Shown piece by piece: positions 399 through 4,759 of a stretch of 5,664 nt of DNA. Where the stretch lies: NCBI GenBank assembly GCA_964573185.1, contig CAZNIQ010000010.1, positions 1 through 5,664 on the forward strand. Reading direction: 5' to 3'. Position 1 is the first letter of the stretch, and every line of letters begins with the position of its first letter. Both the position numbers and the translations under genes were made by a program. The notes beneath the pieces were generated by a model. The model saw nothing but the letters and a program-made list of their open reading frames with translations. It ran no database searches and was not told where the DNA came from. The stretch is from Candidatus Woesearchaeota archaeon. Its GTDB lineage: Archaea > Nanobdellota > Nanobdellia > Nanobdellales > CAZNIQ01.

Positions 399-406
399 GT
401 TTAAAT
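399..406 (-). promoter_or_regulatory. TATA-like box for the 375..1 gene; predicts a leaderless mRNA
   Basis: The minus strand reads ATTTAAAC at 406-399, which is -31..-24 relative to the A of the ATG at 375. That is the usual archaeal TATA-to-start spacing. No Shine-Dalgarno motif lies between it and the ATG. It abuts the candidate sRNA D box (409-406). Confidence 0.35.
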
Positions 407-456
407 CAGTTGCGGAAGTAATACATCATTAATCAGTCAGTGCCGGTTTCATCAAA
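403..456 (-). ncRNA. Candidate archaeal C/D box sRNA (2'-O-methylation guide), immediately 3' of tRNA-Val
   Basis: Minus strand read: box C UUGAUGA (455-449), 12-nt spacer AACCGGCACUGA (448-437), box D' CUGA (436-433), loop UUA (432-430), box C' AUGAUGU (429-423), 13-nt spacer AUUACUUCCGCAA (422-410), box D CUGA (409-406). It is 50 nt box to box. Box order and the 12/13-nt spacers match the canonical archaeal architecture. No terminal stem is evident. The D' assignment is ambiguous because CUGA is duplicated (440-433). Confidence 0.6.
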
Positions 457-528
457 TGGGGCCGCGGGGATTCGAACCCCGGACCTCCGCCTTGTAAGGG
501 CGGCGTCATGCCGCTAGACTACGGCCCC
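457..528 (-). tRNA. tRNA-Val (anticodon UAC), 72 nt, no intron, no encoded CCA
   Basis: Minus strand 528->457: GGGGCCG UA GUCU AGCGGCA UGAC G CCGCC CUUACAA GGCGG AGGUC CGGGG UUCGAAU CCCCG CGGCCCC A. It has a 7-bp all-Watson-Crick acceptor stem, a D arm with G18G19, and a 5-bp anticodon stem. The anticodon loop is CU-UAC-AA (U33, A37). The variable loop is 5 nt, the T arm carries a UUCGAAU loop, and the discriminator is A. The following bases are UUU, not CCA. 51 of 72 positions are G/C. Confidence 0.93.
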
Positions 529-568: not shown

Positions 569-2998
569 ATGAAAGTCTTCGTACTTTCAATAGATTATGA
601 AAGAAAAGGTGATGAGTATCTCATAAGAATTTGGGGGAGAACTGAAGATGGCAAAAAGATTCTGATTTTAGATCATTATGACTGGTATATTTATATCATT
701 CCGAAAACTGATAAAAACAAAATTTATAATGAATTAAAAAAGATAAGATATTTTTATAGAATTGAAGAAGAAAGAAAAAAATATTTAGGGAAAGAATATG
801 ACGTGTTTAAATGTTATTTGAAACCAAAAGATTATGATGATGCAAAGAAGCTATTAGATCCTTTAAAGGAACAAGGATTAATTGAGAAAAAAGAAGTGGA
901 TATTAGTTATCATAGAAAATATATTGTAGATAAAAGATTGTATCCTTTGCATTTTTATAACTTCGAATTAGAACCTATTGGAAAATTATATGGTGTTGAT
1001 ACTTACAGACTAAAATCTTTTAAAGAGTCTAACGGTAAATATGAACTAAAAGTTTTGGCTTTTGATATTGAGGTTTTGACGAACAAAGCTTTTCCTGATC
1101 CCAAAAAAGATCCTGTAATCTCAATAGCTTTTTATTCTAAAGATTTTAAGAGAGTTATTACTTATAAAGAACCTGAAGAGAAAAAAGATTATTATGTTAT
1201 TGTTAAAAGCGAATACGAATTATTTAAGAAATTTGAGGAAACAATAAAAGAGTACGACCCAGATATTCTTGTAGGATATAATTCTAATAATTTTGATCTT
1301 TGGTATTTGTATGAAAGAGCAAAGGTTCTTAACTATAAATTTACTATCGGATGGGATAGGAAAGGATTCATTTATGCTAAAAAGGGGGAGGATAAGAAAT
1401 TTAGAATTACTGGAATACAGCATATAGATTTCTATGATTTCGTTGTTCATATCTTAGGAGGACAGTTACAAAGCACTACGTATTCTTTAGATGAAGTTGC
1501 TAAAGAACTTTTAGGAGAGGGAAAAATAGAAATATCATGGGAGGAACTTTACAAGATATGGACTTCTGGCAAAAACGTAGAAAAACTTTTAGAATATAAT
1601 TTAAAGGATGCAGAGTTAACATACAAGCTTTTTGAGAAATTCAAAACAATACTATTCGAATTAACAAGAATAGTAGGTCAGAATCTTGATGACGTAGCTC
1701 ATATGACTTATGGACAATTAGTAGAATGGTATTTGATTAGAAGATCTAGAGATTTCAATGAAATAGTACCTAATAGGCCTAAACAAGAGGAAGTACAAAG
1801 AAGAAAAGCTATCACTTATAAAGGTGCATACGTTTTTGAGCCAAAGCCGGGATTGTATACTAATGTTGTAGTCTACGATTTCAGATCTCTATATCCCTCT
1901 ATAATAATTTTGCATAATGTTTCTCCAGATACATTAAAATGTGAACATGAGGAATGCAAATCTAATGGTATTACTGTTGAAACTTCTATTGGAAAATGGT
2001 ATGTATGGTTCTGTACAAAGAGGATAGGTTTTATTCCCTCTGTTTTAAAAGAAATTTTTGAGGAAAGAGCGGAACTTAAAAGGAGATTGAAAACTTTGCC
2101 AAAAGACTCTGAAGAATATAGACTTTTAGATGCAAGGCAATATTCATTAAAGATACTTGCAAACGCAACTTATGGTTACATGGGCTTTCCTAACGCTAGA
2201 TGGTATTGCTTGGATTGTGCAGCGGCGATTACAGCTTGGGGAAGAAAATACATAAGTTTTGTTGCCGAAGAAGCTAAAAAGAGAGGATTTAAAATAATTT
2301 ATGGAGATACGGATAGTATTTTTATTCAAGTAAATAATAAAGAGGAAGCATTGAAATTTTTAGAATATATTAATTCAAAATTGAAAAAACCAATGGAATT
2401 AGAGCTGGAGGATTTTTACCCAAGAGGCATATTTGTTTCTAAGAGAACCGAACTTCTTGAAGGCGCAAAAAAGAAATATGCTCTAATAAATGAAAAAGGA
2501 GAAATAAAATTAAGAGGTTTTGAAACTGTTAGAAGAGATTGGGCAGAAATTGCAAAAGAAACACAGAGAAAAGTAATTGAGATTCTGTTGAAAGAAGGAG
2601 ATGTTGAGAAAGCTATCCGATATGTTCAAGAAGTTATAGATAATCTGAAGAAACATAAAGTTCCTGTAGAGAAATTGATTTTATATGAGCAATTAAGAAA
2701 ACCTTTGGAAGAATATAAAGTTGAAGCTCCACATGTAGTTGCTGCAAAGAAATTAAAGCAAAGAGGATTTCCAGTAGGGCAAGGAACTGTCGTTTCTTAT
2801 ATAATTTGTAAAGGAGGAGAGAGAATAAGAGATAAGGTAAGATTACCTGATGAGGTAAAACCGGAAGATTATGATCCAGAGTATTACATAGAGCACCAAG
2901 TTATTCCAGCAGTAGAAAAGATTTTTGAAGCTGTAGGTGTTCCTAAGGAAAGATTGTTATCTAAAGGGCAAAAAACTTTACTTTCCTTTTTCAAGTAA
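569..2998 (+). CDS. polB: Family B DNA polymerase (archaeal replicative PolB type), 809 aa, contiguous, no intein
   Basis: All signature motifs are present in order: Exo I FDIE (1061-1072), Exo II YNSNNFDLWYL (1277-1309), Exo III YNLKDAELTY (1595-1624). Pol motif A is DFRSLYPS (1877-1900), motif B is KILANATYG (2150-2176), and motif C is YGDTDS (2300-2317); KKKYA follows downstream. By eye the sequence is collinear with Thermococcales PolB, for example ARWYCLDCAAAITAWGRKY against Pfu ARWYCKECAESVTAWGRKY, and VRRDWAEIAKETQ against VRRDWSEIAKETQ. Confidence 0.96.
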   Translation: MKVFVLSIDYERKGDEYLIRIWGRTEDGKKILILDHYDWYIYIIPKTDKNKIYNELKKIRYFYRIEEERKKYLGKEYDVFKCYLKPKDYDDAKKLLDPLKEQGLIEKKEVDISYHRKYIVDKRLYPLHFYNFELEPIGKLYGVDTYRLKSFKESNGKYELKVLAFDIEVLTNKAFPDPKKDPVISIAFYSKDFKRVITYKEPEEKKDYYVIVKSEYELFKKFEETIKEYDPDILVGYNSNNFDLWYLYERAKVLNYKFTIGWDRKGFIYAKKGEDKKFRITGIQHIDFYDFVVHILGGQLQSTTYSLDEVAKELLGEGKIEISWEELYKIWTSGKNVEKLLEYNLKDAELTYKLFEKFKTILFELTRIVGQNLDDVAHMTYGQLVEWYLIRRSRDFNEIVPNRPKQEEVQRRKAITYKGAYVFEPKPGLYTNVVVYDFRSLYPSIIILHNVSPDTLKCEHEECKSNGITVETSIGKWYVWFCTKRIGFIPSVLKEIFEERAELKRRLKTLPKDSEEYRLLDARQYSLKILANATYGYMGFPNARWYCLDCAAAITAWGRKYISFVAEEAKKRGFKIIYGDTDSIFIQVNNKEEALKFLEYINSKLKKPMELELEDFYPRGIFVSKRTELLEGAKKKYALINEKGEIKLRGFETVRRDWAEIAKETQRKVIEILLKEGDVEKAIRYVQEVIDNLKKHKVPVEKLILYEQLRKPLEEYKVEAPHVVAAKKLKQRGFPVGQGTVVSYIICKGGERIRDKVRLPDEVKPEDYDPEYYIEHQVIPAVEKIFEAVGVPKERLLSKGQKTLLSFFK
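2970..2975 (-). terminator. Oligo-T (T6) candidate archaeal terminator for the ATPase operon, embedded in the polB 3' coding end
   Basis: After the ATPase stop codon the minus strand reads TAA-AG-TTTTTT-GCCCTTTAG. The T6 run begins 2 nt after the stop codon. T runs are common in this AT-rich sequence, so support is weak. Confidence 0.3.
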
Positions 2999-4759
2999 CT
3001 TGGCTAATTCCTCAGGAGCATTATAAAACATTTCAATATATTTTTCTATCTCTTTATAATTTCTTATATTGTTTTTAACTAAATATTCTATTACTTTTGC
3101 TCTAAAATTTAGATCCGCTATTAATTCTTCATCGGAATATCCTTTAAACTCTTTTATTTCTTCTAATATTTTAGATTTCAATGCTAGGAACTCATCTTTA
3201 GCGGGAACCCATCTAAAAGCTTCCCCATAAACTATATCATCCTTTGATCGATCATAACCGTAAATTTCTACAATTTGAGCTACTCTTCTAACGTAATAAT
3301 TTCCTATTTTTGTTCTAACTAAGAATACTATTGCATCAAGGTTCTCTAAAAGAACTTTAGGTAAATTGATTGGAGGAGAAATTAATCTATCTATGACAGC
3401 TTCTACTGAATCAGCATGAATAGTTCCTAGACCGGGATGTCCTGTAGCCATTGCTTGGAACAATACATAAGCTTCCTTTCCTCTCACTTCTCCAACTATT
3501 ATATAATCTGGTCTTTGTCTCAGGGCTGCTTTTAACAAATCTATCATTTCAACAGCACCGTAATTGTTTGACCCAAATCCGGGTCTTGCAACTAAAGGCA
3601 ACCAGTTTGGATGTGGGAGCTTTAATTCAGGAGTATCTTCTATAGAAACTATCTTCATTTCTGGTTTTATGAATAATGCTATAGAGTTTAGAAATGTAGT
3701 TTTTCCTGTAGCTGTTCCACCTGCAATCAAAATAGAATGTTGTGTTTCTATTAAAGCCCAAAGATACGCAAATATTTTTATATCAGCAGTTCCGAATTTA
3801 ATCAAATCTACAAATGTTAAAGGTTCCTTTGTGAACTTTCTTATAGTAAAATTAGAACCTCTCCTAGCAATATCCTTTCCATATGTTATCTGAACTCTAG
3901 AACCATCTGGTAATGTACCATCTAATAATGGTTGTGCAACGGAAATTACTCTTCCAGTTTTTTGAGCAAGCTTCATAACAAAAGAATCTAATTCTTCTTC
4001 AGTTTCGAATACAATATTTGTCTGAATCTCCCCTATAGCAGGATGTCTATGAAATACGAATATCGGAATTCCAACACCATCACAAGAGATATCTTCAATA
4101 AAAGGATCATGCATTAAGGGTTCTATTTTACCTAAACCGATAGTGTCTCTAAAAATATAATACTTTATCTCAACTTCCCTATCTTTAGGATATTTTACCT
4201 TTAAGAACTTCCAAATTTCATTAATTTTTTTGTCAATGTAATCATAAGCTTCTTTTATATTTTTAATAGCATTAAAATCTATATCTAATTTATCTTCAAG
4301 CATTTCAACGGTTTTTTCTATAATTTCCTTATCTTTCCCATTTATTGGTGGCTCGTGGACAAAGTAGATCAATCTTTTCTTTTCTGGAACATAATGAATA
4401 TCTGCATAAGCTAATACTTTTGTTTTGCCATTTATTTTAGCTATAATTAAAGGATAAATTAGCTTTATATTTGCAGGCTTTCGCTCTATATATGTAAAGG
4501 TTTTAATTTTCTCTACTTTTGTTTCTTTAAATATATAGGACAGTTCAATACCTTTTGCACTAGATTTCTTTGATACTTTTTCTTGCTGATCTATAGGGTA
4601 AGGATAGGAAGTAACGGGAACGAATACTGGTCTGGAGGGGTGAACATATTCTTCAATAATTTTAATTGTAGGAGCTTCAAACTCCTCATATTTCTTTCTA
4701 AGCATTTCCCTTTGTGCGAGAAATTTCACCGCTTTCCTAATGATTTTCCTCAAACTCAT
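2978..4759 (-). CDS. ArlI/FlaI-family archaeal type IV filament (archaellum/pilus) assembly ATPase; GspE/VirB11 secretion-ATPase superfamily; 593 aa
   Basis: Walker A is AGGTATGKTT (GGTATGKTT at 3695-3721). Walker B/Asp box is RPDYIIVGEVRG (DYIIVGE at 3488-3508). The His box is GHPGLGTIHA. Archaeal FlaI-type N-terminal motifs are present: YFVHEPP, IEDISCDG and NFTIRKF (FTIRKF at 3833-3850). The FlaI-like C-terminal helical tail is also present (...YSDEELIADLNFRAKVIEYLVKNNIRNYKEIEKYIEMFYNAPEEL). The ATG overlaps the upstream stop codon as ATGA (4756-4759). Confidence 0.9.
   Translation of the reverse strand: MSLRKIIRKAVKFLAQREMLRKKYEEFEAPTIKIIEEYVHPSRPVFVPVTSYPYPIDQQEKVSKKSSAKGIELSYIFKETKVEKIKTFTYIERKPANIKLIYPLIIAKINGKTKVLAYADIHYVPEKKRLIYFVHEPPINGKDKEIIEKTVEMLEDKLDIDFNAIKNIKEAYDYIDKKINEIWKFLKVKYPKDREVEIKYYIFRDTIGLGKIEPLMHDPFIEDISCDGVGIPIFVFHRHPAIGEIQTNIVFETEEELDSFVMKLAQKTGRVISVAQPLLDGTLPDGSRVQITYGKDIARRGSNFTIRKFTKEPLTFVDLIKFGTADIKIFAYLWALIETQHSILIAGGTATGKTTFLNSIALFIKPEMKIVSIEDTPELKLPHPNWLPLVARPGFGSNNYGAVEMIDLLKAALRQRPDYIIVGEVRGKEAYVLFQAMATGHPGLGTIHADSVEAVIDRLISPPINLPKVLLENLDAIVFLVRTKIGNYYVRRVAQIVEIYGYDRSKDDIVYGEAFRWVPAKDEFLALKSKILEEIKEFKGYSDEELIADLNFRAKVIEYLVKNNIRNYKEIEKYIEMFYNAPEELAKLLEKGK

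Follow-up and report, generated by a model that had tools for sequence, protein, structure and literature searches.

A predicted double-guide C/D box sRNA directly behind the tRNA-Val gene of an uncultured nanoarchaeote

Introduction

Behind the tRNA-Val(UAC) gene located on the minus strand of a 5,664-nucleotide (nt) stretch of archaeal DNA (contig CAZNIQ010000010.1; this whole stretch is referred to as the window), a short segment covering positions 403–456 exhibits the arrangement of boxes typical of an archaeal C/D small RNA (sRNA). The questions raised by this locus are whether the segment is a real guide RNA gene that shares the transcript of the tRNA, which bases it would guide to and how it came to be positioned there. 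The window, with a GC content of about 26%, corresponds to bases 809–6472 of the 6.5-kb metagenome contig L001 (ENA ERZ27262635, partly contained in Logan SRR7968109 as well). The most informative point of reference for it is Nanoarchaeum equitans, in which 26 C/D sRNAs have been mapped by RNA sequencing (Randau 2012, Genome Biol 13:R63, PMC3491384).

The segment 403–456 of the minus strand probably represents a real archaeal C/D sRNA with two guides and a length of about 54 nt, co-transcribed with tRNA-Val, released by RNase Z and guiding two methylations of 23S rRNA. The observations behind this conclusion are the architecture of the segment, the significance of that architecture, its adjacency to the tRNA and the complementarity of both guides to the 23S rRNA of relatives.

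Architecture and significance of the C/D box sRNA

Followed from the tRNA onwards, the minus strand contains box C, the D′ guide, box D′, a short linker, box C′, the D guide and box D, with a UUU tail at the end (Table 1). The sRNA, counted from U456 to U403, has 54 nt with spacers of 12 and 13 nt, i.e. it lies within the range of 25 N. equitans sRNAs. The coordinates of all the boxes and guides proposed in the initial annotation—with A441 and C414 as the N+5 bases—have been confirmed by reading the sequence. The first base of box C and the last base of box C′ deviate from the consensus, and the position of box D′ is ambiguous within CUGACUGA (433–440, minus strand), which offers two overlapping candidates, the 12-nt spacer being obtained from the second one only.

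Table 1 Features of the tRNA-Val/sRNA locus, with positions given in window coordinates
Feature	Position	Strand	Details
Putative archaeal promoter of the tRNA–sRNA unit	554–567	−	ATAAGA + TTTTTAAG; 26–39 nt upstream of tRNA position 1; read from the sequence
tRNA-Val(UAC)	457–528	−	72 nt, 71% GC, discriminator A457, no encoded CCA; ARAGORN; Rfam RF00005, 71.6 bits
Single spacer U	456	−	separates the discriminator from the 7-nt box C; predicted sRNA 5′ end after the RNase Z cut, by analogy with N. equitans sRNA8 (PMC3491384)
Box C	449–455	−	UUGAUGA; core UGAUGA perfect, first base U not a purine
D′ guide	437–448	−	AACCGGCACUGA, 12 nt; N+5 base A441
Box D′	433–436	−	CUGA; an overlapping second CUGA at 437–440 would give an 8-nt spacer only
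D′–C′ linker	430–432	−	UUA, 3 nt, K-loop size
Box C′	423–429	−	AUGAUGU; last base U; GUGAUGU variant with the same ending in N. equitans sRNA15 and sRNA26
D guide	410–422	−	AUUACUUCCGCAA, 13 nt; N+5 base C414
Box D	406–409	−	CUGA
Presumed UUU tail	403–405	−	CUGAUUU(U) ending also in many N. equitans sRNAs
Start of downstream open reading frame (ORF)	1–375	−	ATG 375–373; at least 394 aa, running on in contig L001 (2–1183); 30 nt after box D

In order to judge how easily such an arrangement arises, a strict regular expression (C, 11–13 nt, D′, 2–9 nt, C′, 11–13 nt, D) and a loose form admitting common box variants were used. A single copy of the full box pattern is present in the window, whereas among 2000 dinucleotide-preserving shuffles it was met in none with the strict form and in two with the loose one. 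Independently of the regular expression, a sequence-only profile was prepared from the alignment of 25 non-permuted N. equitans C/D sRNAs (supplementary table of Randau) and run with the filters off. It scores the segment 403–454 of the minus strand with 24.2 bits (E-value 8e-7), the next match in the window having 5 bits and the best background match in the 38 kb searched 8.6 bits. The zero count among the strict shuffles and the profile score both bear out the earlier claim of a complete C/D sRNA of canonical dimensions.

The same profile picks clear C/D sRNAs with 21–26 bits in related nanoarchaeal contigs, namely L003 (16718–16767, plus strand), L005 (6003–6054, minus strand), L046 (1358–1411, plus strand) and L047 (7432–7485, plus strand), and it is from their recovery that the profile can be said to behave as a detector. 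The D guide of the sRNA found in both L046 and L047, AGAACCCGGAAA, resembles that of N. equitans sRNA7.

Folded alone, the sRNA is nearly unstructured: its minimum free energy is −1 kcal/mol and 196 of 200 shuffled versions fold at least as well. In the 126-nt precursor consisting of the tRNA and the sRNA, the tRNA cloverleaf folds intact and independently of the sRNA. A weak fold of the sRNA next to an intact cloverleaf suits a guide RNA that takes its shape from bound proteins.

Predicted targets in 23S rRNA

The guides were compared with the rRNA sequences of N. equitans and Methanococcus maripaludis, requiring a Watson–Crick pair at N+5 and allowing at most one G–U pair; the rRNAs were taken from a published alignment of 16S and 23S sequences that covers seven archaea, N. 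equitans among them (Dennis et al. 2015, PMC4644070). Positions 2–11 of the D′ guide form 10 of 10 Watson–Crick pairs with the N. equitans 23S stretch CAGUGCCGGU (context CCAGUGCCGGUA), and with M. maripaludis nine Watson–Crick pairs and one G–U pair; an identical CAGUGCCGGU stretch is present in the 23S rRNA of Methanopyrus kandleri in the published alignment (PMC4644070). The base predicted to be the target, opposite A441, is the U of CAG[U]GCCGG, equivalent to U1839 of Escherichia coli, the numbering being obtained by indexing on the E. coli 23S gene. Concerning the D guide, its positions 3–12 give a 10-nt run (nine Watson–Crick pairs and one G–U pair) with N. equitans 23S CGGCGGGAGUAAC at the site GCGGGAGUAA, i.e. 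at the start of helix 69. The corresponding target has the form GCGG(G/A)AGUAA, and the predicted base, opposite C414, is the G of CGGC[G]G, equivalent to E. coli G1906.

The two predicted sites are 50 nt apart and bracket helix 68 of domain IV; when the N. equitans segment is folded, they occupy the first position of the helix 68 stem and of the helix 69 stem. The region of these two helices forms an inter-subunit bridge. With regard to chance, shuffled guides match N. equitans rRNA as well as the real ones do in 0.7% of trials for the D′ guide and 4.5% for the D guide; taken together, both guides reach 10 nt in only one of 4000 shuffled guide pairs, and in none of the 4000 do they reach it at sites within 100 nt of each other. 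The use of N. equitans rRNA as proxy was controlled with the sRNA of contig L003, whose D guide pairs over 11 of 11 positions with N. equitans 16S rRNA GUGAAAUGCUGU. The target sequences and the N+5 positions derived in the initial annotation were correct; it had considered a lack of complementarity to rRNA as a reason to doubt the sRNA, and this doubt is countered by placing both targets in domain IV of the 23S rRNA of relatives.

This part of the 23S rRNA is a documented hot spot for methylation by archaeal guide RNAs. Those of N. equitans sRNA26 (1955 and 1989), sRNA11 (2003) and sRNA22 (2010) act in the same region (PMC3491384), and the corresponding block of the alignment bears marks for numerous guides from other species (PMC4644070). 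The sites predicted here, around 1949 and 1999 in N. equitans numbering, are used by none of the N. equitans sRNAs.

A weaker second site for the D guide was seen at N. equitans 23S position 224, where the run is 9 nt long and not conserved in M. maripaludis. Three further candidates for the D guide—23S near E. coli 2735 (GCGGAAGAGAUAAG), 23S near 1262 (GGCGGUAGUAAC) and 16S near 1340 (GCGGAAUC..UAGUAAUC)—were rejected in the systematic scan because of an internal mismatch or gap. A scan of a genome collection with the pattern TCAGTGCCGGTN{20,46}GGTAAACGG gave 40 matches, all bacterial, with about 30 expected by chance; at guide position 1 this pattern demanded an opposing U, a base that is C in archaeal 23S rRNA. 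It should also be mentioned that the N. equitans 23S gene contains an open frame of 324 codons across the target region.

The tRNA-Val gene and the proposed dicistronic unit

The tRNA-Val gene ends, on the minus strand, with CGGCCCCA, terminating at the discriminator A457. The absence of an encoded CCA, already claimed in the initial annotation, agrees with both the ARAGORN and the Rfam assignments (Table 1) and with the UUU that immediately follows the discriminator. Between the tRNA and the sRNA there is no T-stretch, and the one U preceding box C leaves no room for a separate promoter. The one-base spacer, the missing CCA and the lack of any intervening promoter or terminator support the reading of the two genes as a dicistronic unit, so that the layout proposed originally can be retained.

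The only promoter-like element available to the sRNA is the BRE/TATA-like one ahead of tRNA-Val, called by reading the sequence; a sigma-70 promoter scan is not applicable to archaea. This promoter-like motif is also present in L003, the contig of the closest relative. The gap between the tRNA-Val gene and the divergent family B DNA polymerase (PolB) gene is 40 bp long (529–568) and is filled by two back-to-back TATA-like elements, ATTTATA on the plus strand for the polymerase and TTTTTAAG on the minus strand for the tRNA. This implies, as read from the spacing, that the transcripts on both sides of 529–568 would be leaderless or nearly so, as described for the tRNAs of N. equitans, an organism without RNase P.

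By analogy with N. equitans, the following course of events may be proposed for this organism. The tRNA-Val promoter would drive a single tRNA–sRNA precursor, the sRNA having no promoter of its own, and a cut by RNase Z after A457 would create the tRNA 3′ end and the sRNA 5′ end together, with CCA being added to the tRNA afterwards. The sRNA would end at CUGAUUU or immediately behind it. Together with L7Ae, Nop5 and fibrillarin it would form a ribonucleoprotein in which the D′ guide is expected to direct 2′-O-methylation to the U in CAG[U]GCCGG (the U1839 equivalent, first base of the helix 68 stem), and the D guide to the G in CGGC[G]GAAGUAA (the G1906 equivalent, first base of helix 69). The sRNA may, in addition, aid the folding of helices 68 and 69, in line with the chaperone idea discussed in PMC7994747.

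As far as the tRNA itself is concerned, its part from the anticodon arm to the T arm (457–491, minus strand) is identical over at least 31 nt across all the nanoarchaeal lineages sampled (N. equitans, L003 and L046–L049), while the acceptor stems of the sampled nanoarchaeal tRNA-Val vary, being GGGGCCG, GGGCCCG or GGGACCG. On the other side of the tRNA gene, the PolB gene (569–2998, plus strand) and the gene for a type II/IV secretion ATPase (2978–4759, minus strand) overlap tail-to-tail by 21 nt (2978–2998); the same two genes overlap in L003 too, there by 42 nt.

Host lineage, conservation and the downstream ORF

The PolB encoded in the window shares 51–54% identity with its counterparts in Nanopusillaceae and Nanobdella aerobiophila, and 87% with the one in the metagenome-assembled genome GCA_054017035.1; based on these identities, the host is read from its sequence as an uncultured nanoarchaeote. 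A GC-rich tRNA in an AT-rich genome suggests that it is a thermophile.

The closest relative, represented by L003 (the PolB of 87% identity), has a tRNA-Val gene and an upstream region identical to those of the window. Directly behind the discriminator the two diverge: in L003 there follow an AT-rich spacer of 32 nt and a gene of the PsiE family. Synteny with this relative therefore ends exactly at the tRNA 3′ end. The conservation of the boxes in relatives that the initial annotation had proposed as a check was not found at this syntenic site, the identical tRNA of L003 being there without the sRNA. Viral contigs scanned for the 3′ part of tRNA-Val and for the D′ guide with the boxes gave no match.

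In the window, the sRNA is followed by an ORF whose protein has a hydrophobic N-terminal segment and a Cys-rich C-terminal part; no homologue of this 394-aa ORF was found among 5.8 billion proteins. The motif TTTAAA (405–400), overlapping the tail of the sRNA and located 25–30 nt before the ATG of the ORF, could be, judging from its position, the TATA box of the ORF, which would then probably be leaderless.

The linkage between tRNA-Val and an sRNA is patchy: it is seen in N. equitans and in the window, with different guides, and it is absent in five other lineages. This may reflect either two independent captures at the tRNA-Val 3′ end, or an old linkage with replacement of the guides and repeated loss. 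Genes for C/D sRNAs have been described as mobile and often overlapping mRNAs (PMC3491384; PMC7994747), and the patchy linkage fits such mobility. Since two distant lineages carry unrelated guides at the same spot, while five others—the relative with 87% PolB identity included—carry none, one may tentatively go further and regard the 3′ end of tRNA-Val(UAC) as a recurrent landing pad in Nanoarchaeota, at which different C/D guide genes are captured and lost, so that guides lacking a promoter would spread by riding on the transcription of the tRNA and its processing by RNase Z; this generalization is doubtful rather than probable at present.

Evaluation of the proposed reading and of its alternatives

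Several observations weigh against a functional, tRNA-linked double guide. Two of the boxes deviate from the consensus, box C starting with U in place of a purine and box C′ ending with U in place of A. Among the Rfam models, the segment gives only a sub-threshold match, to sR9 of Pyrococcus (22.6 bits, the gathering score being 36; E-value 0.34). Since the C/D families of Rfam are defined by their guides, such a score is what the boxes alone are expected to yield, and the Rfam covariance models suggested in the initial annotation are uninformative for this sRNA; the N. equitans profile scores it far above background. The targets rest on proxy 23S sequences of N. equitans, M. kandleri and M. 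maripaludis instead of the organism's own rRNA, and against this proxy the D guide leaves its positions 1–2 and 13 unpaired and needs an A where N. equitans has G, resulting in the G–U pair. A perfect pairing of the D guide would need the helix 69 stem GGAAG/CUUCC, the N. equitans stem being GGGAG/CUCUC; the former is plausible for an AT-richer rRNA. A scan of the JGI metagenomes for a 23S rRNA with both exact targets and the helix 69 loop gave no match, the nearest PolB in JGI being only 56% identical. To these points should be added the lack of the sRNA behind the identical tRNA-Val of L003 and the absence of C/D boxes after the tRNA in four further nanoarchaeal tRNA-Val loci (25–27% GC; from a metagenome scan for the tRNA-Val core), one of which ends 38 nt past the tRNA.

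The distribution just described leads to the most serious of the alternatives, according to which the sRNA is real but is a passenger of a DNA insertion that brought it and the orphan gene to the tRNA-Val 3′ end, and not a tRNA-linked product of RNase Z; it would then be expressed, if at all, by read-through into the orphan gene or as its 5′ leader, or would represent a recent or decaying copy of little function. The break of synteny exactly at the discriminator, where L003 continues with the PsiE-family gene and has no sRNA, speaks for such an insertion, as does the ORF without homologues, which is what would be expected of recently acquired DNA. The 3′ ends of tRNAs are classical integration sites, so that the position fits as well, and both the mobility of C/D sRNA genes with their frequent overlap with mRNAs and the TTTAAA overlapping the sRNA tail ahead of the ORF point in the same direction. 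On the other hand, the four boxes and the two spacers are all intact and the 23S sites matched by the two guides lie next to each other, which speaks for a function that has been maintained; neither an integrase nor a repeat of the tRNA 3′ end is visible in the available 1.2 kb; and an insertion would be compatible with co-transcription with the tRNA, which can hardly be avoided given the one-base spacer. Overall, a mere passenger appears unlikely. The idea of a chance constellation of motifs in AT-rich DNA, or of an assembly chimera joining the tRNA to an unrelated sequence, is excluded for practical purposes: although the boxes are short, the genome has 26% GC, the Rfam match is below threshold and the junction is present in one contig (L001) only, the pattern was met in 0 of 2000 shuffles, the profile E-value of 8e-7 corresponds to a score more than 15 bits above background, and the 23S sites matched by the two guides are neighbours. 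As the sRNA begins one base behind the tRNA, a read or k = 141 word over box C would always span most of the tRNA too, so that, by this reasoning, the adjacency cannot be a chimera.

The remaining alternative concerns the target. Contrary to the initial annotation, which saw no match between the guides and the adjacent tRNA-Val, positions 3–10 of the D guide (within 410–419, minus strand) form an 8-nt run (seven Watson–Crick pairs and one G–U pair) with G40–U47 in the anticodon stem and variable loop of that tRNA (481–488, minus strand), placing N+5 opposite G42, so that the D guide might act in cis, methylating G42 of the anticodon stem instead of, or besides, the 23S rRNA. The chance of such a run in a 72-nt target is about 1%, as a rough estimate from the shuffled-guide null, and guidance in cis is known for the intron of archaeal tRNA-Trp (reference cited in PMC3491384). 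Eight pairs including a G–U are, however, short for a guide of a thermophile, and the run with 23S rRNA is longer (10 nt). Moreover, the target strand is locked in a GC-rich anticodon stem, and we know of no Gm42 in archaeal tRNA; action in cis is therefore considered very improbable. Taking both sides together, the co-transcribed double guide directed at 23S rRNA is retained as the likely interpretation.

Comparison with known systems

The only family in Rfam that the sRNA approaches is RF01312 (Pyrococcus sR9), with which its box order and spacing align over the full model; the guides are unrelated and the score is below the gathering threshold, and membership in this family was rejected for these reasons. 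Literature searches revealed no report on C/D sRNAs of nanoarchaeotes other than N. equitans, and it is the sRNAs of the latter that offer the closest parallels.

The counterpart with regard to the layout is sRNA8, which is located directly after the N. equitans tRNA-Val(TAC), is the most abundant C/D sRNA of that organism and has been proposed to owe both of its ends to RNase Z (PMC3491384). The two units come from the same phylum and involve the same tRNA isoacceptor, and over its final 35 nt ahead of the acceptor end the N. equitans tRNA-Val is identical to the tRNA of the window. Both sRNAs start with a short U run after the discriminator of a tRNA without an encoded CCA, end with ...GAUUU and share the same size and box order. 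Their guides, in contrast, are wholly different—AGUCGUAGUGCG and UGGAGGUUUCGA in sRNA8, AACCGGCACUGA and AUUACUUCCGCAA here—as are the predicted targets, position 369 of 16S rRNA for sRNA8 and domain IV of 23S rRNA for the sRNA of the window. The boxes of sRNA8 are degenerate (C GUGAAGA, D CAGA), whereas those of the window sRNA have consensus cores. Given the differing guides and targets, orthology of the two sRNAs was rejected.

Concerning function, the closest analogue is sRNA26, which acts on the same two 23S segments flanking helix 68. It shares with the window sRNA the strings ACCGGCACUGA and CUGAUUA(A/G)UGAUGU, as well as a C′ box ending in U, a likeness that is partly due to the GCCGGU core being present on both strands of helix 68. 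The order of the guides is, however, swapped: in sRNA26 the D′ guide is directed to the 3′ side and the D guide to the 5′ side, whereas in the window the D′ guide is directed to the 5′ side and the D guide to helix 69. The methylated bases also differ, being 1955 and 1989 for sRNA26 and, as predicted, about 1949 and 1999 for the window sRNA in N. equitans numbering; furthermore, sRNA26, located in the context of NEQ455/NEQ457, is not beside a tRNA. The tandem duplicate of box D′ in CUGACUGA and the strings in common with sRNA26 form the basis for the tentative idea that the window guide may have arisen from an sRNA26-like ancestor via a 4-nt duplication of the D′ box, the resulting register shift moving its target between the two strands of helix 68.

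Outside the nanoarchaea, fusions of a tRNA with an sRNA have also been described for tRNA-Ser of Ignicoccus hospitalis and tRNA-Pro of Thermoproteus tenax (Tripp et al. 2017, as cited in PMC7994747), and dicistronic tRNA–snoRNA (small nucleolar RNA) genes for plants (Kruszka et al. 2003). In all of these, a C/D guide likewise uses the promoter of the tRNA and is freed by processing of the tRNA 3′ end; they involve other tRNAs and other lineages, with the plant genes depending on RNA polymerase III and the eukaryotic snoRNP (small nucleolar ribonucleoprotein) assembly. In view of these fusions and of the sRNA8 unit, the rarity and interest ascribed to the locus in the initial annotation were overrated. 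The arrangement is already published for the same phylum and the same isoacceptor, i.e. the gene is real but of an expected kind, and the understanding of how C/D sRNAs work is unchanged by it.

What the locus contributes can be stated within these bounds. It adds two new predicted 2′-O-methylation sites, at the bases of helices 68 and 69, to a region in which archaeal guide targets are already dense. Its sole addition to the published picture beyond this kind of gene is the patchy distribution, with swapped guides, at the 3′ end of tRNA-Val, which represents a small but concrete data point on the movement of promoter-less guide genes in reduced genomes. Finally, the tRNA–sRNA dicistron, first seen among prokaryotes in N. 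equitans (PMC3491384), is extended by the locus to a second, distant and uncultured nanoarchaeal lineage.

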